DNA of 64,000 bases from Gnetum montanum (lineage: Eukaryota > Plantae > Gnetophyta), in assembly GCA_015680685.1 (NCBI GenBank), contig MNCI01000399.1, forward strand, positions 103,044 through 167,043, given 5' to 3'. The notes below the pieces were generated by a model that worked only from the letters and a program-made list of their open reading frames with translations, searched no databases and was not told the origin of the DNA. Shown here piece after piece: positions 23,967 through 63,498 of the stretch; position 1 is the stretch's first letter, and every line of letters begins with the position of its first letter. Both the position numbers and the translations under genes were made by a program.

Positions 23967-24827
23967 TGTAACGAACCACTTCTCCTTGAGTTTTTGCATT
24001 AACGATATGTTTTGTTGACAACTAGTGTGTGTGCTTTTTTTGGACTATGGTGGAAATGGCTAATTGGAATAGTAACAAATTTGTTGATCATATTTTTATA
24101 TGTATTATGATTAAATGTTTAAATACTTTATGCATAAGAAATATGATTTAAAATACATGATGGAAATGTTTTAAAATAATAATAATAAATGATATATGGG
24201 AAAACAAAATATTTTTTGTTCTATTTCAACAGAGATGTTGAAAAACAAAGGACAAAGCTCTAAGGTGTGCCTCAAGAGCTAAAACAAGTATGTTGAGATG
24301 CAAAAGAATGCTCATATAGAGGAACTTGACCTATGAATCAAGTTGAAGGAACCTGACCCATGAATCAGGGATATTGTGTGCAAATATTGTAGCTTTATAT
24401 TTTATTTTATCCAAATGTGATGCATTGCTCTTTTTAGTTTAAAATAGTAGAGTATAAGTACTCTCTCCATTACTGTAGAAAGGTCACGTGATGACCTTTC
24501 AAGGCTTGTAAGATGATGGAAAAATTCACATCACTGATGACCTGAAAAGGAAGTGCCTTATTTGATTATGTATCTTGAACTGTCCCTATCATGAATCTAT
24601 TTGAAAACTCTTTCCTTGCATCTTATGACAATTCTGAATGATAAAGAGATAGATATTATGCTAGAATGTTTTGTAATTATCAAGAGGAATTGAACCTGAG
24701 ATTTAGCAAAATCTAAATTCTGAAATATCAAAAATTGTTGATTTAGGAATTGAACTTGCAACCTGTGAATATACATATTTTATTGATTTTATTATAGTGA
24801 TCATGAAGAGAATTGAACTCATGACCC

Positions 24828-24830
<3 letters not shown>

Positions 24831-24870
<40 letters not shown>
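24831..24870 (+). repeat. (GA)20 microsatellite inside LTR copy A
   Basis: Perfect GA run. The sister LTRs have only a short CT tract at this position. Confidence 0.95.
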
Positions 24871-24873
<3 letters not shown>

Positions 24874-25380
24874 CCTTAAAAAGAAAGAAAAGAATACAAA
24901 CAGTCCCCAAGAAGTCAGTTACAAGAAACCATTCATTATCCCTTATTCCACCTACAAATAGGAAGAGGAGGAGAGGAAAAAAGAGAGACATAAGGCAAAA
25001 CTAGCTGTGCAAAACACAAAAAAAGAGGGATACAACAACAAGGAGTGTGGCTGAGAAGGGAGAGAAGACTGTGGTTGCTAAAAGAGATAGCAAGGAGAAA
25101 GAAATCAAGGGAGGCATAGCAATTCAATATTTTGATAATTTCTTATAGTAACAAGATATCTAAGCAAGGAGGTAAAATGATCCATCTTTGTTATGTTTGA
25201 TAATGGTCAGCAAGGGTTGATTTTCTCAAACTTTTCTCTTCTTGCTTTTCTAACCACCTTTCACAATGCTTGTATACAAATACCAAGATTGTTGTTGTAA
25301 GCTTAGATTTTTTTGATATCCTTTATTACCCTTTTTTTGGATCTCTCTACCTATCCTTTGCACTCTCACACCTAAATGAC

Positions 25381-26543
25381 TTTTTTTTGAGAGAGTATTC
25401 GGGATTTTATAATTGGAAATTGCAAATATGTTACAAGATTACAATTGGGGGGTCACCGNNNNNNNNNNNNNNNNNNNNNNNNNNNNNNNNNNNNNNNNNN
25501 NNNNNNNNNNNNNNNNNNNNNNNNNNNNNNNNNNNNNNNNNNNNNNNNNNNNNNNNNNNNNNNNNNNNNNNNNNNNNNNNNNNNNNNNNNNNNNNNNNNN
25601 NNNNNNNNNNNNNNNNNNNNNNNNNNNNNNNNNNNNNNNNNNNNNNNNNNNNNNNNNNNNNNNNNNNNNNNNNNNNNNNNNNNNNNNNNNNNNNNNNNNN
25701 NNNNNNNNNNNNNNNNNNNNNNNNNNNNNNNNNNNNCTAGCGCTTCGTAGGAAGCTGCTGGCATGCACAGTCGGGGCGCACTAGCTCGTGAAGAATGTCG
25801 AGAGTATTCCGATGCTCCTCTGTATCCATGAAGCTGGCCGCCTGTTGGACGCCCTGCATGGCTGCCTCCCATATGCTTTTATCCTTGTGGGAGGCTCCGG
25901 CATCGGGGTGGCAATGTGCCGAGGTTCGGCGGATATATCGACGAAGGTCGCCCCAAGAGCTCTCACAGCTGATTCCTAAAGTAAGGTACGGGCATTGTCC
26001 CCCCCATAACCATTGTCGGGTATTGTGCTCGTGGGCACGGTCCAGTTGCCTCTGCCTCTGCTCCTCCTCCTCCTGAAGCCGGTCCCGCTCCACCTGTTCC
26101 ACCTGCTGTCTCTGTCTCCGGGCCTCTTCCTCCTGTGCCAGCTCCTCCCTCACTTGGGCTCTGATTTCATCGATGAGCCGAGCCCTGGCGGCTTCTGCCA
26201 ACAGGTCCTGTTGTTTCGCCCGTTCCTGCTCCCACTCCTTAAACTGGGCTTCTAACTCGTTGCGGGCCTGGGCGAGGGCTTTAGTCCATTTTGCCTCCCA
26301 TTCCTTCCTTTCTGCCTCTCGGGCTTCTTCCGCCACCCTCTTCCGCAGTTCCTCGTTCCAAGCTTCCTGGTTGGAGGTTTCTGGGGGGGGAGAGGTTGAT
26401 TGGTCCTGACGCTCAGGGGGGCGCCTTTCCCGCGGGGTCCTTTGGCTCCACGAGATATTAGAGCCCCAAGGGCCCTAGCCCCTTCCCAGCTCGGGCACCA
26501 TCGTCGCCTTAGGCGACCTGGGGGGGGCGTCCCGGGGACACCC

Positions 26544-26577
<34 letters not shown>

Positions 26578-26984
26578 AGGACGAGGGGTGCTGCTCCCCT
26601 TCTGCCCCTCTCCATAGAGCCAAAATCAAACCCGAGTGGCAGCCCCGACGTTTGAGGCTAAGGGTCTCATTAAAGTAGTGGGGGAGGTTGACCAGGTAGC
26701 CCCCTTTAAGGCAACGGAGAAAGGCGAAATGTAGGCCCTGTAGCTTGGACCCGTTGCTAGACTGGACGAAGAATCTGTCCACTAGATCTGCACCGTGGGC
26801 CAAGAGGCGGGGGAGGGAAGATCTAGGCACCTGTTTGCTCCTGGTCCTGGGAACTGGCCCATCAAAGAATAGCTCTGCATCTTGGAGGCCATGGGTGGAG
26901 GGCAGGATGGTCTCCCCCACAATGGGGGCCCCCAGACAGCTGGCAATCGCTACTTTTGTGACCCAGATCTCATGCCTCCTGAAG
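25381..26984 (-). mobile_element. 5'-truncated J-LINE copy 1 (accessory domain, coiled coil, intact HPD J-domain)
   Basis: Poly(T) from 25381. The 3' UTR matches the reverse complement of 30890-30964. TSD AAATGACTT at 25374-25382 and 26985-26993. ORFs 26252-27067 and 25737-26336, the latter ending PYLTLGISCESSWGDLRRYIRRTSAHCHPDAG...AMQGVQQAASFMDTEEHRNTLD. Contains the N-gap. Confidence 0.9.
25459..25736. other. Assembly gap (278 N)
   Basis: Run of N. It falls in the LINE 3' UTR and its size is close to the homologous UTR segment of the copy at 30639-30890. Confidence 1.
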
Positions 26985-27837
26985 AAATGACTTAGATGAG
27001 AGTTGTTTCTGTAATGATTCTGAAACACCCATAATGATTTGGGGCATTTTTGGCAAAGGATTGCCAATAGGGGCTATGGATCCTTGATATGAGGATTGGT
27101 ACCGTCGGCAGAAAGTGAGAGTATCCTTGGGCCCATCAGTAATTGTGAATGCTTTAAAATTGTTGAATTCTTGGATTTTGGTTGATGAACCCTCTCCTTT
27201 TGAATGCATAAATCTTGGATCTGAATCTTGAATTATACTTATTTTTTTTCCTAGACCTTCTCAAGTCTGATTTTAATATCTTTCTATAAGTTGATGGAGT
27301 GGGGGAAAACCTAGGATGTTAATTTATGGTTGTGATTTATCTATTCTCTACTATTGAACATATGAACTTCCTGATTAAATGATTACTAGTAAAATGGTTA
27401 CAAGAGTTAAATTTGGATCTTGTTTTTGTGTGGTTGGAAATTATAAAAATATTATTATGTGATTGAACAAATATGAGATTATTAATTTATCTACTTTTGT
27501 GGTCATTTCTTTGGTTTTAAAATGTGCAAATGATCCTAATTAAATATTTCTTTTAGGTTGAATAATAAAATGTTTGATTTTTTTAATCTGATGAATCTTG
27601 CATATATGTTTTACTATGGCTATTTCTTTATAAAATTATCTCTTGATTCATAATATTGATTGACTTGTTTTAGAGCTAGATCTAGGTGTTGTTGATTTCG
27701 TTTTAATTTTATAGGTTAATGTTAGTTTGATTGTTGTAAAAAGAAAGCCACCTGGGCATTTTCTTCTTTCAACTAGCTTTCTTTCTAGGGGGCTTTGGGT
27801 GCTAGCTCTTGCTCCATATGAATGGGTGTTTCTGAAT

Positions 27838-30800
27838 TGTTACATAAACAACTCTCATCCAAGTCATTTATGTGAGAATGTAGAGGATGGGCGGAGAGAT
27901 AAAAAAAAAGTATCCTTTGATGGGGGGGGGGGGCGCGGTTGTGGGGCCTCTCCTCCCCAGGTCGGGGGCTGAGGCAAGGAGACCCACTCTCACCCCTCCT
28001 CTTCATCATCGCCATGGACTTAATGCAACACTACTGCAGCACATCAGGGGTGGATGGTCTGAACATTGCCGGGGTGGCATGTCGGGCCGAACACTATGCA
28101 GACGATACGATGTTGCTCAGTAGGGCAGTGGTCCCGCAGGCACGTTGCATCAACGTTGCTCTGTCCCACCTGGCTGTCAAGTTGGCGCTGGAAATCAATA
28201 GTACCAAATCTTCAGCCCACTTCATTAATGTGGATGAACAAGTTAAAAATCGGGTAATACAAGTTTTGAATATCCTGCCAGGGACAAACAGTGACACATA
28301 TCTGGGCATCCCCCTCTTCGGGTGGGGATGGACCATGGTGTGAGGCCCGCTGTTAGAAAAAATCGAAAGAAGAATGGGCCACTGGGCGAATAGATTCCTA
28401 AGCCGCAAAGGTTGCTTGCTTGTGGCTACTGGAATCCTCATGGCAATCGCTCGTTTCGTGGCTGCCGTTGCCACCCCCCCAAATGTCATCATCAATGCAG
28501 TTAACACGCTGATTTGTAGCTTCATCTGGGAGGGGGGCAAAGGGGGGAGCAAAATCCATTTGGTCCATTGGGAACGGGTGGTGCGCCCCCGAAACGCGGG
28601 TGTGTTGGGCATCACGTCATTCGAGGATGAGTTGATGCTGGGACAACAACAGTTAGTGCTTCGGTTTTTGCACCTGCATAGAGCACTGATCCTGTGGATT
28701 TGCATCATGAATGCCAAATATCTGCGTTGGGAAACGGGGGCACGGGACTCTAGGCCCTGGCAGGCGCTGTGCCGGCACACACGTGCGATGCAGGCCCTGG
28801 GATGGGGGGGCCTCGAGCCGCGAGCCCTTCTGACTACCAAATATCCTCGAATTGACGGTTGGCAGCGGATCTGGCAAGGGCAGTTGCCTGAAAAAATCAA
28901 AATCTTTTTGTGGCTATTCAAGCGCGATGCGCTGCCCGTACGTGCCTTGCTGTGACGGCGTGGAATACTGCAAAGCGACACGTGTCCTGCATGTGGCGCT
29001 GCTACAGAGACATCACAACATTTCGCGTTTGAATGTGCTTACATGCACGCCACGTGGCGCACGGCGGCGGTGCCCCCTCCGAGGCACCTCATGGGTGACT
29101 CTTGGGCCACACTACTTTTATGGGTAGCGTGGAAAGCACGAAATAACATTGTTTTTCGGTAGAAACAGCGCCCCCCGCAGCGGCTGGTCTCCTAGGCTCT
29201 CAACGCATGGAAGGGAATCGAGGCGACGATGGGAATCACACCCACATTCGAGCCGGACTGCGCTGCGTTCCAGGAGGACGAGGCGCTCTAGCAGATGGTG
29301 ACCCAATGCGGCTAGTCTGACCCTCTGCAACGGCTGGTCAGGGATCCAGATCTGGTAGACGATGCGTTCTTCTCCAACTGGGCCAACGACCGTACCTTTT
29401 TCCGAGGCCGTGAAATCTTGATTACAGAATCTTCAATTGCCAGCTGTCTGGGGGCTCTGATTGATGGAGAGGTCATTCTGCCCTCCACCTGCAGCCTCCA
29501 GGACGCTGAATTGTTCTTTGATGGGCCCGTTCCTCGAACCAGGAGCAGACAGGTACCCAGATCTTCCCTGCCCCGCCTATGGGCCCAGGGCGCAGATATG
29601 GTGAACCAATTTTTTGTCCAGTCTGGCAACGGCTCCAAATTGCAGGGCCTACACTTTGCTTTTCTATGCTGTCTCAAGTTGGGTCGCCAGGTCAACCTCC
29701 CCCACTTCTTTAAGGAGGCCCTTCTGCTCAAGCGCCACGGCCGCCACTCTGGTTTAATTCTAGCGTTGTGGTGGAGGGCAGAGGGGGGGCAGCACCTGTT
29801 GTCCTCTGCCCCCCCATGGGGCTCTCTTCGAAGCACCCCCTCAGCAAGGCCACAGGACCCTACGACGTTGCCCAGACAGGGGGGCAGTTGGCCCCTCTGG
29901 GAATCCACCTTTACGCAGGGCCGGAGGACCCAGCAGGAGCGGCGCCCCCCCGAACGCCCTGACAGACTAGTTTCCTCCCCACCAGAGACCTCTGGCCATG
30001 GGAACTGGAATGAGGAGCTTCGGCAGGCCACACAGAGGGCAGCAGATGAGGCTCGGGAGGCAGAGAGGAAGGAATGGGAGGCCAAATGGAATGAAGCCCT
30101 TGTGCAGGCCTGGGCCGACCTGGAAGCCCAGTTCTCTGAGCACGAGTAGGAGCAGGTGAGGCAGCAGGATCTCATGGCTGAAGCTGCCAGGGCTCGCCTA
30201 ATTGATGAAATCAGGGCCCAAGTGCGAGATGAATTGATCCAAGAGGACGAGGCCTAGAGACGACGTGAGCAGGTGGAGCAGGCAGAGCAGGAGCGGCTTC
30301 AGGAGGAGGAGGACTAGTGATAGCGGCAGCTTGACCGCGCCCACGAGCACAACACCTGATAATGGCTAAGAGGGGGGCGATGCCCATACCTCATTCTTGG
30401 CATCAGCTGTGAGAGCTCTTGGGCTGAGCTTAGACGACATATCTGTCGAACTTCGACGTGCTTCCATCCAGATGCGGGAGCTTCGCAGGCGGACATGAGC
30501 TGACGGGAGTCGGCCATGCAGGGCATCCAGTAGGCGGCTAGTTTCATGGACACGGAGGACCACCGAAACACTTTGGATATCCTCCATGAACTGGAGTGCC
30601 CCGACTGCGCCTGCCGACGACTGTCGACGAACCCATAAGGGGTTGGCCCGAGTGGTGGGGGACGCTTGCCCCCCTCTATCGGGTCAATGCCCCCTGATCT
30701 TCTCCGCTGTTTTGGCTCGTCCACTGGGTGGGGGTGCCCCCCTCTCTGTTTCCTGGGGGGTGCCCCCCCTCCCCCGCTGTTGCCCAGGGTTGGCTCCAGG

Positions 30801-32301
30801 GTCAGTGTTTGTTTATGTTCTGTCGTTGGAGCTGTTTTGATTAATTTGGGGATCCTCCCCTCTCATGGAGGGGCCATTCCTGATGGCCCACCATTTGTAA
30901 TCTCTTGTACCATATTTTGTGTTTCTCAGTTATATAATCCCGACTACTTTCAAAAAAAAAAAAACAATCTAAACTTACAACAATAATCTTGATATTTTCA
31001 TACAAGCATTGTGAAAGTGGTTAGTCAAGCAAGAAGAGAGAAGTTTGAGAAAATCAGCCCTTGCTGGCCATTATCAAACATAACAGAGATGGATCATTTT
31101 ACCTCCTTGCTTAGATATTTTGTTTACTAGGAGGAATTATTAGAATATTGAATTGCTATGCCACACTTGTTTTCTTTCTCCTTGCTATCTCTTGTAGCAG
31201 GGACAGTTTTCTCTCCCTTCCCAGCCACACTCCTTGTTGCTGTATCCCTCTTTTTTTTTTTTGTTTTGCTTAGGTACTTTTGCCTTGTGTGTTTTTTTTT
31301 CCTGTCCTCTTCCTATTTGTAGGTGGAATAGGGGATAATTGATGGTTTCTTGTAACTAACTTCTTTGGAACTGTTTGTATTCTTTTCTTTCCTTTTAAAG
31401 GTTTTTTTGTCTCTCTTTCTTAGCAATGAGTCATGAGTTCAATTCTCTTCATGATCACTATAAATAAAATATGTATATTCACAAGTTGTAGGTTCAATTC
31501 CTAAATCAACAATTTTTGATATTTTAGAATTTAGAGTTTGCTAAATCTCAGGTTCTATTCCTCTTGATAATTACAAAACATTCCAGCATAATATCTATCT
31601 TTTTATCATTTAGAATTGTCATAAGATGCAAGGAAAGATAGATTCATGATAAGGGCAGTTTAAGATACATAATCAAATAAGGCACCTTCTTTTTTAGGTT
31701 ATCAATAATGTGAATTTTCCCATCATCTTATGAGCCTTGAAAGGTCATCACGTGACTTTTCTACTGCCATGCAGAGGGTACTTATACTCTACTATTTTAC
31801 ACTAAAAAGAGCAATGCATCACATTTAGATAAAAGAATAAAATATAAGGTTACAATATTTGCACACAATATCCCTGATTCATGGGTTGATTCATAGGTCA
31901 AAGTTCCTCAGTATGAACATTCTTTTGCATCTCAACATACTTATTTTAGCTCTTGTGGCACACCTTAGAGTATTGCCCTCTATTTTTCTTTTGTTTCTCA
32001 ACATCTCTGTTGAAATAGAACAAAAAATATTTTGTTTTCCCATATATTAATTGTTATTATTATTTTAAAACATTCCCAACATGTATTTTAAATCATATTT
32101 CTTATGCATAAAGTATTTAAACATTTAATCATAATACATATAAAAATTTGGTCAACAAATTTATTACTATTCCAATTAGCCATTTCCACCACAGTCCAAA
32201 CAAAGCACACACACGACTTCTTAACAAAACATGCACACAGACACACAGTAAGACTATTACAATCGTTAACACAAAAGCTCAAGGAGAAGTGGTATGTTAC
32301 A
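27838..32301 (-). repeat. LTR copy B (tandem extra LTR), interrupted by a J-LINE
   Basis: TGTTACATAAACAACTCTCATCC at 27838. LTR sequence resumes after the poly(A) at 30965 and runs to GTGGTATGTTACA at 32301. Confidence 0.85.
27911..30964 (+). mobile_element. 5'-truncated J-LINE copy 2: L1-type RT, zf-RVT, accessory domain, coiled coil and J-domain in one frame
   Basis: RGLRQGDPLSPLLF, HYADD, TYLGIPL, CPACG..ETSQH..FEC and WKARN are followed in the same frame by MGITPTFEP..., CPYLILGIS...FHPDAG (CAT CCA GAT 30465-30473) and TAA at 30636-30638. About 15 point stops, no frameshift. Poly(A) at 30952-30964. Confidence 0.93.
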
Positions 32302-35300: not shown

Positions 35301-38300
35301 TGCATGAAAATGTATTTCAAATTTTGATGATCTAACCATACTCTAAATTTCTTTCCATACAAATAATGTCTCCATATTTGCAAAGCATGGACCATTGCTG
35401 CAAGTTCCAAATCATGCACAGGGTAATTGTGTTCATGAGGTTTTAATTGTCTTGATCCATAAGCAACTACCTGATTTTGCTACATTAAAACATAGCCTAA
35501 TCCCTCACTGGAGGCATATGTATATACATCAAATTGAACATTTTCTAAAGGCATGATTAATATAGGAGTTGATGCTAACAATTTTTTCAGGTTTTGGAAA
35601 GCCAAAGTACATTTCTTTGACCATTGGAATTGATTGCTCTTCTTTAACAATGATGTCAAAGGGGTTGAAATGTTTGAAAAATCTTTTACAAACCTGCGGT
35701 AGTAGCTTGCTAACCCCAAGAAACTTCTGACCTCTGTAACATCCTCTATAACATTATCAGGTTGAGGCCAACTAATTATTGCATCAATTTTATCTGGATC
35801 AATGACTAACCCTTTGTCTACCAAGACATGACCAAGAAACCTTATTTCAGATTGCCAAAATACACGCTTGCTCTTACTTGCATACAACTTATGTATCCTA
35901 ACGGTCATAATGTCCATACCTTGTTTGAAAGGCTATTTTTGAAATGTCTTCTTCTTTGATTCTTAGTTGGTAATATCCTGACTTTAAACCAATTTTTGAA
36001 GATACCTTTGCTTGTTTGAGCTGATAAAAAAGCTCATCAATCCTTGGAAGAGGATATTTATTCTTAATAGTTACCTTGTTTAGCTGTCGATAATTAATGC
36101 ATAGGCGTAAAGTTCCATCTTTTTCCTTGATGAATAGAATTGGTGCTCCTCATGGTGACACACTAGGCCTAATGAATCCCTTCTTTAATAGTTCTTCAAG
36201 TTGGGTTTTTAACTCATGCATCTTAGCTGGTGACATTCTATATGGTGCCCGTGAGGTTGGAGCACTCCCTGGAAGAATTTCAATCCCAAACTCTACCTTC
36301 CTTTTTGGTGGCATTTTCGGTCACTCATTAGTAAACACATCTTTGAATTCATCTACAACTAGACATGCCAATGGTGTCTTCTCTTGTTGGCAATCATTAT
36401 CACTGTTAGTTGCATACAGTTTGACCAAAATTGTTGCTTTTGATGTTTGCATCTTTTGCACCATTTGTTTTGTAGAAATAATGTTTCTTGAGAAATCCCA
36501 AGGTTGACAGAAAATTTTCTGGTTTATTTCTCCATTGTTAATTTCTATGCAGTTCTATCCACAATTAATTTTTGCCTTATTTTCACCAACCAGTCCATAC
36601 CCAACACCACATCGTATTATCCCAAATTCATAACAAGGAAGTCCATAACAGAAGGTTGATTCATGATTTTTATCTCACAACTAGGCACAAAACATTCTAA
36701 GGCTTTATGGTCACCTCAAGCTAATTCCACCTTTCCCATACATGGTAAGAGATGAATTTTACTCCCTAATCTTTTAACCAAAGAATCTGATATAAATGAA
36801 TTTGTTGATCCATTTTTAAAAAGAATGGTAACAGATTGAAAATGAATGATACCTATTGTTTCTTGGACTGATGCTTGATATTGCACACTTGTTGGAACAT
36901 TTGTTGCAGCATATAATTGGTGAAAGCTTGTTGGCTGGAGATGTTTGTTTATTTCCTTCAAGAGCCTTTGTTTGTGGGCATTGAGCTTGAAAATGGGCCC
37001 CTCCACATGTCCAACAACCCTTCCTTGGCTCTCTAAGGGTTGATCCTTCACCTTGTATCATTCCTATTTGATTTTTTTCATCAAATCATTTTCCATTTGA
37101 TCCTTGACTTCTTGGTACTTTAAATTGCTACTTGGATTTTTAGATACTGTGGTGGATTTATCAAAATTTTTGCTATTAAATTTGTCCTTTGTGATTTTCC
37201 CGTGGCATTAGTTCCTTTATGGTTTGTTGATAGCAATTCCTTCTTCCTAATGAATTCAACTTCCACAAGTTTAGCTTTATCAATAACTGCAAATAAGTTA
37301 TCCAACTCAAACAAATGAACTTTTTCTTGGGCTGAAGGATGCAAGCTATTGATAAAGTTTCTGATTCTCATGTATTCTGGAATTTCTGGTGTATACATCA
37401 TTAAATTAACAAACTCACGTTCATATTCAGCCACATTCTTGGACCCTTTGCTGTAGGTGCAAGTATTCCTATCTTTTTTGTTCCACATGTGCTTTTGAAA
37501 TATATCTTGTTCTGAACAATTGTACAAATTCATTTCATTCAACACCTTCGTTATGAATTTTTACTTTTTCAGTTCTTCACCAATTGGCAGCATCACCTGC
37601 CAAAACATGAGTTGCAAGAAGAACTCTTTCTCTAGCATTTGTATGTAACAGTTCAAACAAATCATTCATCATGAACAGCCAAGATTCAGCTTGCTCTCCA
37701 CTTGAAACTCCATCAAATGATGGTGGCTTGCACTTCAGAAATTCTTGCAACTTGATAGCTCCATTATTTCCTTTATTTTGATATTGTCTTGCCTCATTTT
37801 CCTCATGATTATGTACTATTTGCTGTATATATTGTTGTATAGCTATAGTAAGCAAAGTGATAGAATGGGCAAGTGCTGCAAAGGCCTCTTGCCAATGTTG
37901 AGGAGGCTCATTCTCTTGGTTGCTAGAACTGGCACCATGTTTTTTCTCTTGTAAGTCTTCATTGTACTTATTGTTCAAAGGCCTGTACACACTTTGAATG
38001 CTATGCTTTAGTTGCCATGATAATTTATTCCAAATCAACACTGAAGCCATTTCTTCTCAATTTAGGCATATGAAAGACAAACTAACACCACATCAAACAA
38101 TGCACAAATTCAGACTTTATAAGAGGTTTGAAGGAAAGTAAAAGAAAGCCAAACCTAGCTCTTTGATAACAAAATGTTATTCCCCTCTCCTCCTCTTCTT
38201 GTTATTGACTTCTTGAGAACTGTTTATATTCTTTTCTTTCTTTTTAATGTTTTCTCTCTTTTTTTTTCTCAACAATGAGTCATGAGTTCAATTCTCTTGA

Positions 38301-39169
38301 TGATCACTATAAGAAAAATCAATAAAATATGTATATTCATAGGTTGTAGGTTCAATTCCTAATCAACAATTTTTGATATTTACAATTCAGATTTTGCTAG
38401 ATCTTAGGTTCAATTCCTCTTGGCAATTACAAAACATTTCAGCATAATATTTATCTCTTTATCATTTAGAATTGTCATAAGATGCAAGGAAAAAGTTTTC
38501 AAAATAGATTCATGATTAGGGAAGTTTAGGATATATAATCAAAGAAGGCACCTTCTTTTCTAGGTCATTAGTGATGTGAATTTTTCCATTGTCTTACGAG
38601 CCTTGAAAGGTCATCACGTGACCTTTCTATAGGCCATGGAGAGGATACTTATACTTTACTATTTTAAACTAAAAGGAGCAATGCATCACATTTAGATAAA
38701 ATAAAATAAAAAAATAAAATATAAAGCTATAATATTTGCACACAATATCCTTAATTCATGGGTCAGGTTCTTTCAACTTGATTCATAGGTGAAGTTCCTT
38801 AGTATGAGCATTCTTTTGCATCTCAACATACCTGTTTTAGCTCTTGTAGCACACCTTAGAGTATTGTCCTCTGCTTTTCTTTTGTTTTTCAACATCTCTG
38901 TTGAAATAGAACAAAAAATATTTTGTTTTCCCATATATTTATTATTATTTTTATTTTAAAACATTTGCAGCATGTATTTTAAAGAATATTTTTTATGCAT
39001 CATAATACATATAAAAATCTAGTCAACAAATTTATTACTATTCCAATTAGCCATTTCCACCACAGTCCAAACAAAGCACACACACAACTTGTCAACAAAA
39101 CATGTACACAAACACACAGAAAGACTATTACAATCGTTAACGCAAAAACTTAAGAAGTGGTTCATTACA
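32295..39169 (-). mobile_element. Decayed Ty3/gypsy chromovirus (Tekay/Del-like) LTR retrotransposon
   Basis: 5' LTR 39169-38175 (internally deleted) and a degenerate tRNA-Met PBS at about 38159-38171. Gag 38050-37120, zinc knuckle CWTCGGAHFQAQC, protease, [26 protein letters not shown] (YxDD region deleted near 35910), RNase H HDLELAAMVHAL, integrase with GPF and a chromodomain-like tail. PPT AAGGGGAGGAGGA at 33738-33750 and 3' LTR 33737-32295. Confidence 0.92.
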
Positions 39170-39688
39170 AGAGCCCCAAACTTCCACATCGTTGTGTAAT
39201 TTAGAGCTGCCCACTCTATCTTCTAAAGTGACTTAACTCTAATGAAATGAAATCTTCTTTTTGTTATTCCTTGGTCATTTGTGATGGGATATAAGTAATG
39301 TTCCTACAACTGCCGTTGGTAATTTTACTGTTTTTGAAGAATAGAAAAATTGTCCAAAAATTATTAAAGGCTCATATTTTTGCAATTTTTCGTGCCATTT
39401 CCATTAGTGGTTGTAAAATTGTAACTTAATTTGTTGGAAATTTGGTGGCAAGAATTCTAGCAAAAGTTATATACCTAAATTGAATTGCTCATGATCCAAA
39501 GACATTACATGGCATAAATCAAGGTCCATAGTCTTGGATTTCTCATCATGATTTGCTTATTGATTCAATTTACTAAAGATACATGTTGGTGTTTCCTGCT
39601 GTTTTATCCTTCATTTTGCGTGCTTATTCCTTGTATGAGAATGATTTGATGTTTACTTTTTATGAACGTATATTGTATTGCATTGAAG

Positions 39689-43092: not shown

Positions 43093-43573
43093 GGAGTCTA
43101 TCAGAGAAATTAATGGATCAGTGAATTTGATACTTGAGAGGCCTGTAATACCATTTCCAATCCAAAAATTTCCATTAGCGGATCTAGGAGCTTCTTATAA
43201 TTGTGGTAAGGTTTCTTGTGCTATATGGGACCAAACATGTCTTACACATGCTCTTCAGCCAGAGAATGCAAAATGTGCGAATGTTGGCTTTGTTTTTTAC
43301 TCACCAAAGTTTCTTAATCCCAAGGGATGGAATGCTTTGAAAAAAGAAGGAAAACATCTAAGAGATGACAGAGAAATATACATAAATGCATCAAAAAGAG
43401 GTTCTCATGTGCTTCCCTCCGATGATATTGTTGCTTTATGTTATGAGGAAGAGCCAACGGAGGGTTTAGAATGGTCGTATGGAAGCTTTCCAATCGATGA
43501 ATACATGAATGCACTAAGGAGATCTGAAGGAGAGTTACGTTACAATCATTCCCTGGGCATGAAGTGTACAAAG
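43093..43573 (+). CDS. LSF1: LSF1 exon 3
   Basis: Acceptor TTTCAG|G completes ATG. Reads ...LILERPVIPFPIQ...EWSYGSFPIDEYMNALRRSEGELRYNHSLGMKCTK. Donor AAG|GTGATA. Confidence 0.95.
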
Positions 43574-47559: not shown

Positions 47560-48882
47560 GGCATTGTGTTACAAGATTAAGAGGTGCAATATTGAAATTC
47601 ATGCATTTTTAGAAACATGGATTCTGCTGCTATTAGTCCCAATAGAGAAAGTGAAGAACACTTTTTTCAAGATCAACAACAACAGACATCTACTACAACA
47701 AGTAATGCAACAACTATCTACTGCAACAAGTAATGCAATCTCTGCTTGTATGTGAAGGTGCAAGGGTAATGCTTACAGTTAACCTTTGGCCTGAAGCAGG
47801 ATTGGTGAATGGTGCACTTGGCATAATTCACAATATTATGTATCTTTAAGGTAAATAGCCACCTACATTACCATTATATGTTGTTGTTGATTTTGACTCC
47901 TACATCGGATGTGCCTTTAATAATTGTAATCCTCATTATGTGCCAATTGTACCTGTGGTCCAAGGAGCATCTCATCAGTCACCATTACGGTTGGCATGGG
48001 CCATAACTATTCATAAATCTCAAGGAATGACACTAAATAAGACTACTATTCACATTGGTTCAAGAAAAGTTATGAGTTTAACGTTTGTTGCATTATTTAG
48101 AGTCAAGACCATTGATTCTTTAAAGATTCATCCTCTTTTTTATGTGCAAAGATACAGAAAGATTTTAGATGTTAAACATCTCCAAAGTAGAATTGCACAA
48201 GAAGTTTGTTTTGCTTAGTTGGAGAATTAGGCATATTGAGTTCACACTTATTATAGTTACCTTTTGCTCAATCCTATTATACAGCTCTGTAATGTTTGTT
48301 GCAATAATTGTGCAATGTATTCCTTCATCAACATATACGAAATATATAAATTTTTATTTTAACCAATTTATGTTTACCAGTATATATTATTTGGAATGCA
48401 AATAGTGATGATAACTTAAAAAATAAAAAAAATAATTAAATTCTACTCATAGCCCACGAGCTCCACAAGAGAACTTACGGGTCTAACGTTTATTGCATTA
48501 TCTAGAGTCAAGACCATTGATTCTTTAAAGATTCATCATTCTTTCCATGTGCAAAGATATAGAAAAATTTCAGATGCTAAACATCTTCAAGTAGAATTGC
48601 ACAGGAAGTTCGTTTTGCTCAATTAGAGGATTAGGTATATTAAGTTCACACTTATCATTGTTTTTTGCCTTTTGCTCAATCCTATTATACAGCTCTGTAA
48701 TGTTTGTTGCAATAATTGTGCAATGTATTCTTTCATCAACATATATGAAATATATAAACTTTTAGTTTAACCAATTTATGTTTAACAATATATATTATTT
48801 GGAATGGAAATAGAGATAATAACTAAAAAAATAAAAAAAAATAATTAAATTTTACTCATAGCCCGCGAAACCACTCCACTAG
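47560..48882 (+). mobile_element. Helitron-type PIF1 helicase C-terminal fragment with duplicated 3' end
   Basis: GARVMLTVNLWPEAGLVNGALG...PLRLAWAITIHKSQGMTL..LTFVALFRV are PIF1 motifs V/VI. Ends ...CCACTAG at 48882. The element probably extends 5' to about 46200, boundary unresolved. Confidence 0.75.
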
Positions 48883-49350
48883 CTTATATATATATATATA
48901 TATCTATCTATCTATAAATTGGCCGAGATTATTAAAAAAAAATTATGTTAACCAAGCCCTACTACTCAACGAGGTAACAAGATAACTAAAAACGGAATCA
49001 CTCATCCTTTTTTTGTTTCTCTACCACTTACCCAATTTAGTTTTATCCTCTTGGTCAAATTTGCTTTTTCTTTGTTTGTTCATGACGTCTTTTAACATTA
49101 TTTATGCAAGAGATTTATTTAGCATTATTTATGCAAGAGATTTATTTCTCAAAAACGCCATGAACAAAGAAAGAAAGAGCAAACTTGACCGAGAGGGTAA
49201 AACTAAATTGGGTAAGTGGTAGAGAAACAGAGGAGGGATGAGTGATTTCGTTTTTAGTTATCTTGTTACCTCATCCAGTAGTTGGGCTTGGTTAACATCA
49301 TTTTTTTTAAAATCATCTTGGCCACCATATATATATATATATAAGCTAGT
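48878..49350. repeat. Foldback/MITE-like long inverted repeat
   Basis: Arms of about 200 bp (48878-49092 and 49151-49350) are reverse complements, with ends ACTAGCTTATATA / TATATAAGCTAGT. The loop holds a 25-bp direct duplication. Confidence 0.9.
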
Positions 49351-51375: not shown

Positions 51376-51447
51376 ATTACAGATCGAATTCATATTGGAT
51401 CTTGTATACAGAATGCTGAGGATGTAGCTGTTCTATCAAGCTCAATA
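51376..51447 (+). CDS. LSF1: LSF1 exon 4 (start of DSP domain)
   Basis: Acceptor TTTGCAG|ATT. Reads ITDRIHIGSCIQNAEDVAVLSSSI (LSF1: ITEQIYVGSCIQTEEDV). Donor ATA|GTATGT. 72 nt, phase 0/0. Confidence 0.92.
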
Positions 51448-52576
51448 GTATGTTTTTGTTGTTTATATTTTTTTGTTATTTATTTTATTTTGAAAATGAT
51501 TGATGGTTTTATTTTTAGTTGAAAAAGTTCTACTACGGATCAATGGATTGATTCTGAATATACGGCTCATAATTCAAAAAGGATAATACAGAAGTTTGAG
51601 GCTAACTTAGTTTTCAAAGCCTTATACTTTGTTCTTGGTTAATGGTGGAAAAAATCTAGGCCTCAAAGATAAATTGAAATGCTTTTAGTTTTAAGTTGGT
51701 GAGTGAAAGAATTTGGATATTAATGACATAAAGAGGATTTGATGTTCAGTTTCTAGTTAGTATCATGAAGGCCCCTTGCAAGCACACCACCTATACTGTA
51801 ATGTTTACTGTTTTTGTGAACCTACTTTTTTTTTTTTTGTATTTTAATGCATAGTATATTAGCTGCTTGTTTTGTCAACAGTGCAAATAATTTAAGATGG
51901 AGATGAAGGCAAAAACAACTATTACACTTTGCTGGATGTTCACTGGAATGTGTTGACTATATAAAATTAACATGCATAAGAAATGTGTTAATTGTAGAAC
52001 CGTATTGAGCAGCTTGCTAATCAGTTGGACCAGTGACACCATCTAAATTAGTAACATTCTTTATTGGAATACGGGTAGCAAACTCCAGGTATTCTTAATT
52101 TAACCCTAGTGCTTTCCAATGACTTGTCATCAGTATGTAAATAAACTTGGTTGTGGTTTACCTCTTCATCTTCTCCTTCATTTGCTTTTCCATTATCAGT
52201 AGGTGGACCTTCCTTTTGAGGAGCACAGGTGATCTAAGATTCTTAACAATAGCTTTAACAAGAATATACATATTTCTAGCCTTTTATTGATTGGGTCATA
52301 ACAGTTGGTCTCTTTCAAAGTGCCATATAAATTTTCAGTCAAGCACAACACAAATCTGGAAATGATATTAGGATTTGTTATTCTTCCAATACCAAAGAAG
52401 CAATTTCCTAATAATTAACACAAGATTACATCCATTTGCAAGGGAGGAACTCAAACTCTAGAATTCTTCATGCTTATCTATGGGCTTGTGTCGTAGGAAT
52501 CACTTGATACTTTGACAAGTTTTGTTTTCATTACCTTCTTGTGTTTTTGATTGCAATCAATGAATAAAAGGTTGGG

Positions 52577-54415: not shown

Positions 54416-57400
54416 TTTTTTTTTTTTTTTTTTTTTTGAANTAGCCCACAAGGGCCAACTGCAATTGAAAAAACTAAAAACTTGGTAGTCCCTGACACCT
54501 GAAGGCCCTAGGCCTTGCCATCCCCAGGACCCCAAAATGATTTGCACATAGAAATAGTGGTGGATCCCCTTATCCGAAATTTCTAGCTCTCAACCATAAA
54601 GATTTGTCAAAACCCGAAAATTGGGTGCCAGACATCCCCATCTACCCCAAACCCTGGAACATCTAGAGCCTTTTTGGGAGGCTCATGCATTCGCAATTTC
54701 TGCATTCCTAACAAAGGATTTCTAGGAGGGACTCCTCGTGTCCATTTGTGCCCACAAGGCCATGGTCTCCTGGAACAAGTCTACACTTTGCCTCTTTCCT
54801 GACCCGCTTGACCTCATCCCCTTTCCCGTCCAAACCAAGTATGTACATTAGTTGCGAGAATGCTATCCAGCTACTACTAGAGTTGAGCAACCTCAATTTG
54901 ATCTCTTTCCTGTGTCCGCCTAGCCTCCTTCTCCAACTGTTGCTTCTCTTGTTATTCCATTTCCTCTCGTATATGAACTCACAGCTTGTTAAGAATCATT
55001 GCCCTAGTGATTCTTCTTGTACTTGTCAACACTTGTTGATCTCCTCTTCTAGCTTGGCACATTGCAGTGCAGCTAGGGTAGTAACTTGCTTCAAATCTTT
55101 CTCTCGCGTGGTCCATCTTGCCTTCTAGAAAGCTTGCTCCTATGCCCTAGCACGCACGGTAACCTCTTTCGCAACCTTTTGAATCTAGGTCTAAATTTCA
55201 GCCTAAGAGTAATACATCATTTCTTGATCCTGTCCCTTGAAGTTAGTCTACCCTTGTTGCACCTCTTTTGCTAGTAGCTCGGCCATCCTCCATGTTGACT
55301 CCTTCCTAAGCATTGGGTTGTGCAGCCACATTGCCCCCCCACCTTGACGCAGACCCCAATGTCCCAGATCGTTTTAGTCTTCTAGTATACACAAACCTGG
55401 GATCTGACCTCAGCTCTTGTGGCAGCGTTGGCATCCGATCCTCCATAGGCTAGAATTAAACCAAAATGGTGCCCATTATGTTGTTGCCGAAGCTCTGCAA
55501 GAAAATACCTCAGCAAATTGACCGAATTACCATGCCGCATATAGCTCATAAAAGCAAAGTGGATGCCTAATAACTTAGCCAAGCTATTGGAATGGACCAA
55601 GTATCTTTCGATTAATACAACCACCTCTTGCCATATTTGTGGCAATGTGGACTTCGGCACATGTTTGCTCGCCGTTTTTGGTATTGCACATTTGAAGAAG
55701 CTTTTTGCATGTTCAAGGTTGCACTGAACCAGGGGAATAGTTTCCCCCTTTACTGGGACCCCTAAAGACATTGCCAATGTAGGCTTCGTTAATGTAATCT
55801 TCATGCCCTGAAACGTTGTCTCCTCTCCCATCCAATTGGTAAAGAATGGGCCATCGGCCAGCCTAGGGTCCCCTTCAAGCCTGGGCAAGAGCTCAGCCCA
55901 TCCTATATGCTCTACCATCTTCCACAATGGCATATTCGCTTATAAGGTGGCAACAAATGGCTCAAACAACTATGTGCAACCCATAGTAACTAAAGCCTCC
56001 CATCATAGCTGGGCCTTAGCTACAATAACCAACACTAACGAAGGAAGGCATTGGGCCCTAAAAATTAGATTATTTCTTGTTTTCCATAAAATCCACAACA
56101 ATGCAGTCACTTTTAAATCACCATCCAAGTTGACCGACAATGATATTGCGGTTGCCTACCAAATGTCCTGTGAATAGGAGCATTGATAAACAAAATGGTT
56201 AATTGTCTCAAGTGCCTTCAGACCTAGGGGGCAAAGAGGATTAACACCTAACCCACACACTTTGAGAGAAGCCCAAATCGGGAGAGCGGTCTGCTTAATG
56301 AGCCAAACAAAAACTTTCATTTTTTCGAGCAACCTACCCTTCCACAGTCTTCTAGCTAGGAATCAAGGGGTACTTCGTAGTAACAATATCTTTGGGAAAT
56401 TTTCCCAGGAGTCTCTTTTGCATAATCTCTCTTGCATGTTTGCTCATGGCTTGCCACAACAACGACTCCATGTCCTAGATCACCCATTGTTGGTACTTTT
56501 GGCACATGATGTGCACCCATGGAGCTGGACACTCCTCAGGCAGCAGTAATTGATTGACTAGGTGTTGAAGCCCGATCATGATCTCATCCTAGAATTTCAA
56601 CAGCCCAATACCCCCAGCCTCCTTTGGCCTCACTGTGTTTTCCCAACAAACAAGGTGTAACTTTTCTTCCCCTTACTCCTGACCAAACGAAATTATGAAT
56701 AACTTGGTCAACCTTGAGGATGATCCCCATTGAAGGGGATGTCATGGATTCTGTGAAGCAGGAAACCACCATGAGGACAGAAGAGGCCAGCATAATCTTT
56801 CCTTTCCATGTTAGGAAATGATTAGTCTAGTGGCCTGTCCATTGCTACATTTTTTGTACTAGGGTTGTCCATGAGTGGCATCGAAGCTAGGCAAAAATTG
56901 GCATTCCCATATATGAGTCCGGAGTTGTGCCTAGCAAGATCCTCAGTATCTGGAAGATCCTACCCTTAACTTGATCATCAACATTCACCAAGTGAATCCC
57001 TGACTTTGCCTAATTTATCTCAAGACCCACCTCTTGGGCCATGTGATCCAATGCACGATTAAGTGCAAGGGCCTATGGCATAGTCGCGCGTGAGAAAAGG
57101 ATTGTATCATCAGCATAATGTTTTGCAAGGCAATCCATACCAGCAACCTCCAAGCCTCTTATCTCCTCTAACTCATAGTAGATCTATAGCATATCCATGG
57201 CCGTAATAAATAGGAGTAGGGAAAGAGGGTCTCCTCGTTGGAGCCCTCGTCCTGGTTTAGCAAACCCCCAAAATGATCCATCAATATCAAAGGAGTAGCT
57301 CCCCAAAGCCTGCAGCTGGATACAAAGGTCCACAAAGTTGGGATCAAAACCTTTGCATAACATAATCTCCTTTAGCACATCCCAACTAACAGTATCATAC

Positions 57401-59935
57401 ACCTTTGTAATAGCTAACTTGATGCACATTCTCAGGTACCTTGTATTACGTAGTGAATGCAAGATTTCATGTAGTAGTATGAACTTGTCCTATAGAAATC
57501 GTCCTTTCACGAAACCCACTTGATGCTCCCCAACCAGCTTCAACATCCTTGGGGCTAGATGGCGAATGAGCATCTTCGTAAAAAGCTGAAGTAGGGTATT
57601 ACAAACCCCAATAGGCCTGAACTATGCCAGTGCCATTAGATTAGTCACGTTGGAGATGAGGACAATCCTTGAACAGTTAATCTCCTGCTGGACTTGTTGC
57701 TAGTGTAGCATTTGGTTGAAAGCCTTCGACATATTCTTCCCCATGATATCCATGAACTCCTTGAAAAATTCAATTAGCCATCTATCTGCCCCCGAAGTCT
57801 TATTAATTTTCATGGTTATCATTACTTCTTCCAACTCCCTCATTGTGAAGGACCTGAGTAGCACCCTATTCTCTACCTCCCCAATGATCCTTCTGACTTG
57901 GACCAAGAGTGGCTTGGTGCACTGCTTGCGCCAGATGGTGGCCCAATATTGATGCATTGCCTTGACAATATCATGGTTGTCAACTAGAGTGGTGCCCCTC
58001 TGCACCAGTTGTTGTAACATCTTCTTTGCTTGCCCCTGTGCCCTAGTGGGAGCGAAGAAAAAACATGTGTTTTGGTCTCCTTCCTGTAGCCAAGTTATTC
58101 TCACATGCTACCTCCAATACATTTCTTCCTTTGTTGAAAGGTTCTATAGCTCACACAAGATCGCCTGTTCTTCTTCTTCTAACTCCACACCTTCCTCCTG
58201 TTGTGCCTGAATTTCTCCCAATCTCTGTCATAATTGAGCACGATGAGCACGAAAGGTATATTTATCTTTCAAAGCTTTAGCGCGTAGCTTCTATTTGAGC
58301 TAGTGCAGTGCATTGTTCAGAAACTCCCTAGGATGCTCATGTGTCTAACAGGTCCCCCAAATTGCTGCTACCATTGGTTGGAGCCAAGGTTTGATTAACC
58401 AAGTCCACTCAAACCAAAATGGACAAGGAGTAGTCCTCAAGCCTCTATGTATCTGACAAATAATCAATTGGTGGTCTAAAGCTTGGCTCGCCTTCCCAAA
58501 CACCTAAATATCAACTTCAGCACAAGCCTCAAGCTAATCCAGACCCAGTCAATCCGTGACAGCACCCGATCCTTCCCTTGGCATAGGTTACTCTGTGTGA
58601 ATTTGCAATCCTTGATTTCCATATTGATGAGCTCATGCTCTTTAAGAAACACTTGGAATTCCTGACACCTCAAAGGATCCACATTGTCGCTTCCGGAGCT
58701 CTCCCATGGATATAGCATTTGATTGAAACCTTTGATCAAAACCCACTATCTCTGATTGGGGACCACCTGCACCAACCGTCTAAGCTCTTGTAGTTGAATC
58801 TCCCAATTTTGGGCCCCATAAACATTGGTGAGCCAAATACCTTTTGGCACAAGGAGGACTATTATGCTCCAAGTGGACATGTCAACTAATGTGACAAGTA
58901 ATTGGGAAAGAATGGCCAGCCCCCCTACCTTGCCCTGGCAGGGGACTATTTGTTTTTGCCAACCCTCCCACTTCAAGAGCTGAGATTCCGTTGTAGTTTT
59001 GTTTCATGCAAGCATATCACATCACATTCTTCATTCCGAACAATTTCTTTCAGGGTATTTCGTTTATAGGGCGTACCCTAACCTCTACAATTTCATGTCA
59101 AAATCTTCATGGTCTACTAGTAGACCATTTTTTGTAGACCTCTTTCAAGGTCTATTGACATCTAAAATCAATCTCCAATTGCATTTTCTTACTTTTGGCA
59201 ATCAACATGATGGGGCAACCAGTTTTCCTAATACTTGATGAGATCGGATATTTTCAATATTTTCCTTGTGGGACGGTACAATCTCCTGCATTTGGGGTTT
59301 TGATGATCCCTGTATGGTAGATTCTCAACCCCCCAACGATGGAAGATCCTTGCCATTATCAACCAGGTCTGGTTCCAACTAGTGGGGTGTCGTCGTTTCC
59401 TTTGGAGACTCACACCCCTCTTCCCTATGTTCTCTAGACCTTGTGGTTTCTAGGACAAGGCGGCCTTTCTTGCTGACCTTATACCAACCTGATTCCACTT
59501 TTTTTGCCAATGGTTGAGCCTTAGGCTAGACCCTGCAAGTGGCAGCCAAGTGACCCACCTTTCCACAAATGGTACAACCACCCCTTGGAGAAGCTTTGGT
59601 CACATCAATGTTCTCATATTCTACTAGGATTCGATCCTCTCCCAATGGAAGATCCAGAATCACTTCACACACTAAATCTTTTGATAAAAGCGACTGCCAA
59701 ATGCAAAAACGCGTGAATCCCATTTGCTCCATTGAGCTTGTGAACTTGTCAAATGTGATAAACTCGCCAAAGAACCCAACAAGGGTTTCCAAGAAGTTTT
59801 TATTCCACATTTCCCAGGGGATGCCAGATGCCCTAACCCACATGGGTGCCCTGGTGAAATGATCTTCGTCCTTGTGGGCCCTTGGCCTCCATGATGTCAA
59901 TGCCAATCCACGGGCCCCATAGAAACATGTATAAT
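54416..59935 (-). mobile_element. Near full-length L1-like LINE (ORF1, EN-RT ORF2, same accessory C-terminal extension); J-LINE copy 3
   Basis: ORF1 has DUF4283-like MWVRASGIP and a CTICGKVGHLAATC knuckle (59526-59935). EN has NVYGAQ and SRIDW. RT has WLQEGDQNTCFF, RGLQRGDPLS and HYADD (about 57105-57120). WKTRNN reads in frame into MGCT.LFEP and ORF 55382-55933, then a coiled coil. Poly(T)22 at 54416-54437. Confidence 0.92.
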
Positions 59936-61248
59936 GGTAATATACTGTATTGAATTTGTGATCAAGGTTGAACATGGAATGCTAGATTTACAAGCATTTG
60001 CAATGAAGCAAGAAGTGGAACATCTATAAATAGAAGATAAGGTTCTGAATAAACTAAGTTAAGTATGTCTTTTGTTCTTTTTCTTATTTGTAAAGTTTCT
60101 CCTCATCTAAGCATTTGATTGTTATGGTGACTAAAAAGTCTGCAAAAAATAGCCAAATTGGTGAACAATATCCAATTTTTTATTGGAATAGATAGCAATG
60201 CCAATATTATTAGCTAGTAGACTTTTCTAGGAAGTTTTTAGGTGATGGTGAAAATGTCTTGGTTCAATGAAGCTTAGGTTGGCATATAAGGAACCACATG
60301 TATACATTGAGATGAAGGGTAATGGATTTGATTTCCTGAGCATTTATCCTAGTTTGGAAAGGGCTCAAGACTTTGTTAGTTTCTCACCTTTCATTATGGT
60401 GTCAGATATGTGGTTGATCTTATTTCTGCTGTGCTAGTCCATCTTGTTAATATTTTAATTCTGATCATAGAATCTGTTATTGTTAATGGGACGTAACATT
60501 TTTCAGCTGGAGAAAGTTTTCATTACTAAATGATTTTTTTGAAATGAAATTTTCAAAAAGGTAGTGCAATTGACTCTTTTCAAAGAGTCACAATTTCTTG
60601 CCAAACATTTTGAATAATTTGCACAACATTTTAAAAGAAATTTGATTTTAAACTTTGAATCGACAAAAATGCCAACTAAAGTAATAGGTATGATTTTTTT
60701 TTTTGTTTTTTTGTTTTTTTGGAAAAAGAAAGGTACGCTACTTTTGAAAATTACAATTCTGTCTATTTATTTAAAACTTTGGCTTGGGGGGACCATTCAT
60801 GAAAAGGGCCTATTTGCTGAATACAGCATTTGTGGTTTTTTCTATTTTATTTATTATATATTATTTTTTGAGATAATATCCCAATTAGATGCTTTGCTGG
60901 GTGATAGCTTGTGAGCATTGAATTATCACCCATGCTTCGTGGTTGCTTGTTTATTTAACATCGAAAGAAGACAGATATTGTTCTTGCTTGATACGTAATT
61001 AATTTATTCATACTGATTTACGCGTTTAACGTAAATTTCTTTATTGAATTTTGAGTGGGAAGCAAACTCATGATGGTGTCTTTCTCTTTATCTTGTACAT
61101 GATATTATTTTTATCCCATGTAATCTATGGACATTGTAAATATTTTTCTTTGTTTAAGAATCTGTGCCGTTGTAAACTTTAGCAGATTATTAATGCAAAT
61201 TGGATACTTCAAAAATTATTTTACTAAATCAGATCTTCCTGGTTTCAG

Positions 61249-61370
61249 GGTATAACAGCTATTCTGAATTTGCAAAATGACACGGAAAAGCAAAACTGGG
61301 GAGTGGTTTCAGAAGAGCTTCACAATGCATTTCAGGAGCATAATATTGTGCTTGCCAATTGTCCAATCAG
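61249..61370 (+). CDS. LSF1: LSF1 exon 5
   Basis: Acceptor TTTCAG|GGT. Reads GITAILNLQNDTEKQNWGVVSEELHNAFQEHNIVLANCPI(R). Donor AG|GTGC. Confidence 0.92.
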
Positions 61371-63022: not shown

Positions 63023-63238
63023 GGAATTTGATACTGTTGATTTGCGTTATAAACTCCCTTTTGCAGTGGGGGTTTTATACCGACTACTAAGACAAAATCA
63101 CCACGTTCTTGTGACATGCACTACTGCTTTTAATCGATCACCAGCGTGTGTGATTGCCTACATGCATTGGATTCAGGATGTGGCATTAGAAGAAGCAGTT
63201 GACTTTGTCACATCATTGCATAGTTGTTCACCAGATAG
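63023..63238 (+). CDS. LSF1: LSF1 exon 6 (DSP catalytic loop); gene continues beyond the window
   Basis: Acceptor TTTCAG|G. Reads EFDTVDLRYKLPFAVGVLYRLLRQNHHVLVTCTTAFNRSPACVIAYMHW...HSCSPD(R), with the LSF1-type T-C-x5-R loop. Donor AG|GTATG. No stop codon or CBM48 is seen in the window. Confidence 0.95.
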
Positions 63239-63498
63239 GTATGCTTATATAAGTCAAATTCACTAATATCAGCACTAGGAATGCCATAATATTAATGTGC
63301 AGCTTTCCCTTTCAAATTATTAAAAATTTGTCTTTATTTTTCTAGAGGAACATTAAAAACGTCATTATAAATGCTCAAAGATGTAAACAAGTAGACACTA
63401 ACATACCATAAATGCTTTAAATGGAGATCCTATCAAAGATGAGAAAGTCAACAAAACAGTTTTTTTTTGTATTTTTGTATTTTCGTTTCTTTTATTGA

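Follow-up and report, generated by a model that had tools for sequence, protein, structure and literature searches.

An L1 retrotransposon type of Gnetum montanum whose ORF2 frame runs on into a cargo domain with a predicted VANC/PMD-like fold

The window analyzed here, a stretch of 64,000 nucleotides of Gnetum montanum DNA, contains three decayed copies of one plant L1 LINE type in which the ORF2 frame continues beyond the WKxRN motif into additional coding sequence, hereafter the cargo (Table 1). The locus raises the question of whether this cargo is part of ORF2, a true ORF3 separated from it by a fixed stop, or an unselected passenger. A sequence-only reading had proposed that a divergent copy independently establishes an in-frame extension of ORF2. 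The ORF2 frame is open into the cargo in three divergent L1 families, a result held with high confidence. The reading that we favor, with a probability of roughly 0.6, is that ORF2 continues into a captured cargo as one EN-RT-cargo protein, the predicted VANC/PMD-like tail of which would bind DNA or chromatin and aid escape from silencing.

The window comprises repeat-rich plant DNA and a host gene with very long introns, which we take from its motifs to be an LSF1-like phosphoglucan phosphatase gene; copy 3 lies antisense within its 9.8 kb intron. The copies display the traits of the L1 clade, namely poly(A) tails, 5' truncation (copies 1 and 2), no LTRs, and a reverse transcriptase (RT) followed by a zf-RVT region. 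The DUF4283 domain of ORF1 is found in copy 3, together with a zinc knuckle, and in the distant family L001 considered below. The endonuclease of copy 3 is presumably the frameshifted region in which APE-type motifs can be read by eye; a Pfam search of positions 58100-59000 in three frames gave no match. The RT-to-cargo frame of copy 2 contains 16 stops in 906 codons, the last of which is the terminal TAA at 30636. Copy 2 belongs to a family that is GC-richer and probably younger, and copy 1 shares 72% DNA identity with copy 2. The copies are old, and no target-site duplication of at least 12 bases was found except for A-runs.

Table 1. Positions of the L1 copies, their parts and the host-gene exons in the window.
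Feature	Position	Strand	Remarks
Copy 1	25381..26947	-	5'-truncated, cargo only; N gap 25459-25736; short poly(A)
Copy 1 J-like part with HPD	25797-25991	-	PF00226 E 7.9e-4, under cut-off
Copy 2	27921..30964	+	5'-truncated L1; RT through cargo end in one frame, 0 frameshifts
Copy 2 junction	W 29130, ATG 29229	+	stops TAG 29160, 29193, 29289, 29313
Copy 2 WKxRN-to-Met linker	29130..29228	+	33 codons, two private stops
Copy 2 cargo domain	29229..29777	+	sequence used for folding
Copy 2 J-domain-like part with HPD	30384..30578	+	downstream of long charged helix; PF00226 E 0.0067, under cut-off
Copy 2 poly(A) tail	30952-30964	+	
Copy 3	54416..59981	-	near full-length decayed L1: ORF1, ORF2 with cargo, poly(A); 5' end not fixed, ~60000
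Copy 3 ORF1 piece, DUF4283 and zinc knuckle	59529..59981	-	PF14111 E 2.7e-14, PF00098 E 0.006
Copy 3 endonuclease region (presumed)	58400..59110, approximate bounds	-	frameshifted; APE-type motifs by eye
Copy 3 reverse transcriptase	56965..57624	-	PF00078 E 1.7e-18
Copy 3 zf-RVT	56159..56368	-	PF13966 E 2.5e-12
Copy 3 WKxRN motif and usual ORF2 end	55985..56086	-	34 codons, cargo in frame, one private stop 56005
Copy 3 junction	W of WKTRNN 56086, ATG 55984	-	stops TGA 56005, TAG 55972, TAA 55942
Copy 3 retained cargo ATG	55982..55984	-	A at -3, G at +4
Copy 3 cargo domain	55442..55984	-	remote PF20167/Athila-ORF1 type; E 1.4e-23 with profile of 11 outside relatives; predicted VANC/PMD-like fold
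Copy 3 decayed C-terminal part	54690..55133	-	charged helix, CxxCxC-like end; J domain not recognisable
Copy 3 poly(A) tail	54416..54437	-	22 bases
Host-gene exons	near 43400-43560, 51377-51450, 61247-61370, 63030-63240	+	last exon DSPc PF00782 E 2.7e-7

Several other repeats accompany the L1 copies. An LTR-like repeat of ~1.4 kb occurs in several copies, two of them in tandem (23956-25382, 30963-33748 and 38196-39170), and surrounds Ty3/gypsy gag and RT/RNase H fragments at 35081-38056; copy 2 appears to be inserted in one of these repeats. A second LTR pair (5458-6221 and 14635-15358, 87% alike) flanks gypsy-type RT/RNase H remains at 10741-11109. Copies 1 and 2 stand head-to-head, and the AT-rich stretch between them is bounded by a 48-base inverted repeat (26985-27032 and 27822-27869). 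A PIF1-type helicase fragment on the plus strand (47740-48150; PF21530 E 6.8e-5), accompanied by a 408-base tandem copy at 48061-48868, is probably of Helitron origin, and a self-complementary stretch of ~440 bases (48901-49343, 79% match) is perhaps a MITE. A TATA-AATCC-GA-like motif lies just 5' of the poly(A) of copy 2 (30929-30950), copy 1 (25395-25412) and L001 (7965-7980), and is missing from copy 3; it could be a 3' recognition signal.

The translations that had been quoted across the junction of copies 2 and 3 are both correct, and the two copies are indeed very divergent, with 38% identity that extends equally over the zf region, the linker and the cargo domain. Their alignment exceeds 300 shuffles with z-scores of 8.4 in the linker and 31.6 in the domain. 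The frame is kept between them; the spacing, said to be equal, is not quite so, with 34 codons from W to M in copy 3 and 33 in copy 2, and is identical from M to the FF motif. Relative to the Met, stops fall at codons -7, +4 and +14 in copy 3 and at -23, -12, +20 and +28 in copy 2, so that none is common to the two copies, whether counted from W or from M, as had been noted. Every junction stop is one transition away from a sense codon, a pattern that would fit methylation decay. The density of stops in the cargo domain (1.1-1.6 per 100 codons) lies within that of the RT and zf segments (0.5-2.3), and is far higher in the off-frames of the cargo. Two decayed copies are nevertheless weak evidence on their own, because a free spacer stays in frame one time in three. 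The in-frame claim consequently rests mainly on read contigs from several runs and on L001, which uphold it.

Contigs from four DNA runs (organisms A, B, C and E; three studies), numbering 1,754, 1,942, 1,792 and 953, were aligned to positions 29000-29480 of copy 2 at 80% likeness. By depth, the share of sense codons in runs X1, X5, X7 and X9 amounts to 59, 74, 92 and 93% at stop 29160, to 68, 82, 69 and 78% at stop 29193, to 87, 78, 79 and 91% at 29290 (third stop), and to 83, 88, 88 and 87% at 29314 (fourth stop). All four stops of copy 2 are thus the minority state in each of the four runs, and the junction stops therefore represent private decay. Run X1 is possibly the source of the window itself, and the other three runs, from two studies, agree with it. 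None of the 22 differences listed within 29130-29320 creates a stop or touches the ATG, and the sole linker indel among those listed is a 3-base insertion; these belong to the 40 listed of 150 differences, beyond which a majority stop allele would probably have shown, the weakest one listed reaching 43% in its best run. Contig depth does not equal copy count, and the comparison covers the family of copy 2, not that of copy 3. The contigs are also ten-fold deeper over the cargo than over the linker. We do not read this excess as a sign of cargo-only copies: contig depth cannot rank parts, the loose ends mark subfamilies that diverge at this point, and in an oligo-dT run the RT core reaches the depth of the cargo.

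A scan of metagenome contigs, in which one of 140 pattern matches was confirmed, yielded L001, the contig underlying one of the profile matches described below. It represents a full L1 with DUF4283, endonuclease (PF14529 E 1.8e-8), RT, zf-RVT and a poly(A) at ~8008. The 36 codons from WKxxN to the Met contain no stop and lead in frame into the same cargo domain, which shares 27-29% identity with the window copies (z 15-17); the RT is 42% identical to that of copy 2. Past the cargo domain, L001 contains one frameshift, a long charged region and a J domain (PF00226 E 6.6e-9; 36.2 bits, above the cut-off). The stop-free linker of so widely differing a family indicates that the open junction is common to all three families.

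The cargo would be a true ORF3, expressed by reinitiation or read-through, if WKxRN and MG were separated by a fixed stop or frameshift. The linker is interrupted by stops in both copy 2 and copy 3, and in copy 2 their density of 2 in 33 codons exceeds the 2 in 403 of its RT. Neither a fixed stop nor a frameshift was found among the contigs of the copy 2 family or in L001, however; the stops stand at different places, are in the minority in all four runs and are absent from L001, which largely refutes this alternative and leaves it highly improbable. The single ORF2-cargo frame that had been proposed is hence supported by the contigs of four runs and by L001, and from it we infer the long protein, the translation of the EN-RT-cargo fusion as one product being likely.

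An unselected passenger, acquired by chance 3' capture or nested insertion, is equally improbable. L1s transduce flanking DNA, according to PMC7264820, and stand-alone relatives of the cargo occur in seed-plant data. Against this, the cargo has the same position and reading frame in all three families, whose proteins differ by 60-75%; it belongs to one clade, and it is conserved to a degree resembling that of the zf region, with pairwise identities of 38, 29 and 27% for the cargo domain versus 38, 24 and 21% for the zf region.

The cargo consists of a domain of ~183 residues remotely of the PF20167/Athila-ORF1 type, followed by a stretch that is coiled coil or disordered and then by a J-like domain. 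A profile search of 1.84 billion representatives returned 26 matches at E up to 0.001, of which two have a named source, Welwitschia and Ginkgo. Conversely, a profile of 11 outside relatives recovers the three window copies (E 1.4e-23, 4.1e-22 and 3.7e-11) and nothing else notable. The window cargo proteins have no Pfam match to PF20167, DUF1985 or PMD (PF10536), and DUF1985 was not found at E up to 1, nor at 0.05 in a second Pfam search. Relative P0022 does match PF20167 (E 1.5e-5), and the best relative scores 25.4 bits against a Pfam cut-off of 45 bits. P0005, the one relative that was mapped, maps to PF20167 clusters (26 of 30 matches, best 0.92) and to an ATHILA/PF03078 cluster (0.90). 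The cargo domain therefore appears as remote kin of PF20167/Athila ORF1 only. The sequence-only reading had given the cargo no name; by sequence it is, remotely, a PF20167/Athila-ORF1-type domain with a J-like part.

A tree of 28 rows places the L1-borne domains (four rows) and the Welwitschia protein on one side of a branch with support 99/97; the tree is midpoint-rooted and L001 forms a long branch. P0002 (same locus as L001), P0027 and P0025 were left out, the last having been dropped as a spurious bacterial repeat protein. The Welwitschia member of the L1-borne clade, P0012, is a transcriptome protein that begins exactly at MG. In P0018, a single predicted gene combines a cargo-type domain with a PPR-DYW protein, perhaps through domestication or perhaps as an artefact of gene prediction. 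All 26 HMMER matches lack a Pfam match to RT or zf-RVT, and word-index searches, which are weak evidence here, found no longer protein holding the cargo among 7,988, 516 and 6,982 candidates. No cargo relative was found in viral contigs, and none in the PDB by sequence. The LTR fragments of the window hold no cargo homologue either (the three profile matches are all L1), so that the donor element was not seen.

The AlphaFold model of the copy 2 cargo domain, built from an alignment of 15 sequences, has a pLDDT of 89 and a pTM of 0.85. A structural search revealed DNA-bound VANC21 (PDB codes 9LNK and 9LNJ) as the best match among 48,161 chains and the only one above Z 5 (Z 5.4-5.5, 5.5 for 9LNJ; rmsd 4.2-4.6; 168 of 183 residues aligned), the next chain reaching Z 2.8; values of Z below 8 may reflect a common arrangement and lie under the tool's stand-alone trust level. 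VANC21 also has the highest TM-score among the Foldseek rows (0.46), with E 3.0 and 11% identity. The sequence profile of the cargo domain does not recover VANC21, and a viral fold library contains no match to the model. The match is modest, and is given weight because it covers the full length, is separated by a gap from the next row and joins two accessory proteins of plant transposons. The domain is not basic (K+R 16-19, D+E 13-25). A true homology of the modeled fold with VANC/PMD is probable, somewhat less so than translation of the fusion. The VANC fold is itself reported to be homologous with MAIN/MAIL1 (PMD) in PMC13547354 and 10.1101/2024.09.27.615353, and VANC binds short motifs and removes methylation, as stated in PMC5735166.

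The region 3' of the cargo domain comprises a 126-residue helix in the model of copy 1, whose counterpart in L001 is a charged low-complexity stretch. Scores for PF00226 are 36.2 bits in L001, 19.9 in copy 1 and 16.9 in copy 2, with none in copy 3 (cut-off 27.8). The HPD motif is present in copies 1 and 2 and absent from L001 and copy 3, both of which are decayed; the J-like part of copies 1 and 2 is followed by a CxxCxC-like end that is shared with copy 3. Foldseek with the C-terminal model gave nine J-domain titles among the top 11 rows, at low confidence (E 0.3 or worse, pLDDT 45-56). The J part of copy 1 does not align with that of L001 (E 0.11); one capture and two are therefore both possible.

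The sequence-only reading had added that a conserved T-M-G leaves room for an internal start, a caveat that is strengthened here. The Met aligns with an MG..EP motif that occurs at the start of the cargo domain in 14 of 26 database relatives, at residue 1 in 7 of them. All three L1 families retain it, as does the Welwitschia protein, and each of the three DNA copies has A at -3. T-M-G most likely preserves the start codon with which the donor gene began. Order in the model is lowest at residues 1-10 (pLDDT 57), where a pure fusion has no need of a Met; its retention there speaks most strongly for a second product made of the cargo alone, which is plausible on sequence grounds. The main product could even be this separate protein, made from the retained ATG by a spliced or internally started RNA within an open frame and acting in trans on all copies like VANC. 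LTR elements can express env-like extra ORFs by splicing (PMC7264820), and a YAG lies 32-35 bases upstream of the ATG in all three copies. This match is weak, as every copy has five YAG per 110 bases. In the oligo-dT run X24, moreover, depth is 104-142 over RT bins versus 54-85 over cargo-domain bins, starts do not pile up, and no joint falls at the ATG among the 15 of 21 joints listed. X24 is a weak test: of its 1,886 reads none is 99% alike and 1,295 fit partly, and they may be passive intron transcripts, because copy 3 sits in a host intron, so that the element's own expression is not shown by X24. Run X21 gave only 130 reads, and among the indexed runs no RNA holder is on record. A separate cargo protein as the main product accordingly seems unlikely, at about one chance in four in our judgment.

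Smyshlyaev and colleagues reportedly described in 2013 plant L1 LINEs with RNase H at the end of ORF2. No LINE with a domain of the present kind or with a J domain was found in the literature surveyed; Repbase, Heitkam 2014, Smyshlyaev 2013 and subscription papers or supplements, such as the domain tables of PMC5203782, may list one. Within that literature, an L1 ORF2 with a PF20167-type and J-like tail, as assigned by sequence, is a new L1 variant. The plant L1s with an ORF2-terminal RNase H in PMC5203782 resemble it in their ORF1 with DUF4283 and zinc knuckle and in an extra domain placed in frame behind RT and zinc finger, but the window L1 has no RNase H and carries instead the PF20167-type domain, the long helix or disordered stretch and the J-like domain. 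In insect R1/TRAS LINEs, a viral SF1 helicase is fused to ORF2, likewise as a foreign in-frame C-terminal domain for which anti-silencing has been proposed (PMC4686597); clade and host differ, and that helicase is of RNA-virus origin.

VANC21 of VANDAL (MuDR) elements is transposon-borne, like the cargo, and its coiled coil is also predicted to dimerise (PMC13547354). VANC is, however, a separate gene of a dicot DNA transposon with DUF1985, whereas the cargo, of predicted function, shares 11% identity with it and is fused to a LINE RT. At most, the cargo would work like VANC by analogy; it is not classed as VANC, having no DUF1985 and lying outside MuDR. In sequence, the cargo is remotely related to PF20167 (Transposase_32) and PF03078 (Athila ORF1) of Ty3/gypsy elements, which are described as separate ORFs within LTR (Athila) elements (PMC11728184, PMC7264820); the L1 copies score under the Pfam cut-off and group in a clade of their own. 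MAIN/MAIL1, for which the VANC fold is reported, act at promoter motifs against Polycomb silencing (10.1101/2024.09.27.615353), but are host genes; with no PF10536 match in the cargo, the link runs through VANC21 only.

The favored model of a single EN-RT-cargo protein builds on three observations, the frame open in three families, the domain order and the one clade of L1-borne domains; the data examined held neither an intact copy nor a transcript or protein of the fusion. An ancestral L1 would have captured a whole accessory gene of a plant transposon, of the PF20167/Athila-ORF1 kind, directly behind the last ORF2 motif and with its start codon included. The resulting fusion, of ~1,470 codons in copy 3 and ~1,940 in L001, would enter the nucleus with the RNA of the element as a ribonucleoprotein. 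There the predicted VANC/PMD-like domain would grip DNA at or near the new copy, or chromatin, while the predicted long helix would dimerise the tail and the putative J domain would recruit Hsp70. The tail could then shield new copies from silencing or steer insertion.

An anti-silencing role, drawn by analogy, is tentative. It is placed before insertion targeting because it is the sole tested function met for a transposon-borne protein of VANC fold. In the targeting alternative, ORF2p would be anchored by its tail at a DNA motif or a mark on chromatin, in the manner of integrases with a chromodomain. In its favor, the tail is joined to the very enzyme responsible for nicking and priming at the target, PMD-C proteins associate with promoter motifs (10.1101/2024.09.27.615353), and copies 2 and 3 sit inside another repeat and inside a host intron, respectively. 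The three copies share no common target, however, and targeting is improbable, more so than either an anti-silencing role or a separate main product. Tandem repeats that might serve as target motifs were not found beyond homopolymers in the untranslated parts of the three copies, whose 5' UTR was not located owing to decay, which favors neither targeting nor anti-silencing.

At its boldest, and with little confidence on our part, the finding would point to an old L1 lineage of seed plants whose VANC-like anti-silencing factor, equipped with a J domain that recruits Hsp70, is produced in two forms, as the tail of ORF2p and separately from the ATG. It would be the first case of sequence-specific anti-silencing in a non-LTR retrotransposon, and the PF20167/Athila extra ORFs would have the same fold and likewise act in anti-silencing. 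Such anti-silencing is established for VANDAL DNA transposons, and none was found reported for a LINE. Even without it, the ORF2 architecture is one not met in the literature surveyed. If the favored reading is true, a VANC/PMD-like module moves among DNA transposons, LTR elements, host genes and LINEs; the extra ORFs of the PF20167/Athila kind would gain a testable function, and the module might help to explain the persistence of LINEs in large, methylated plant genomes.
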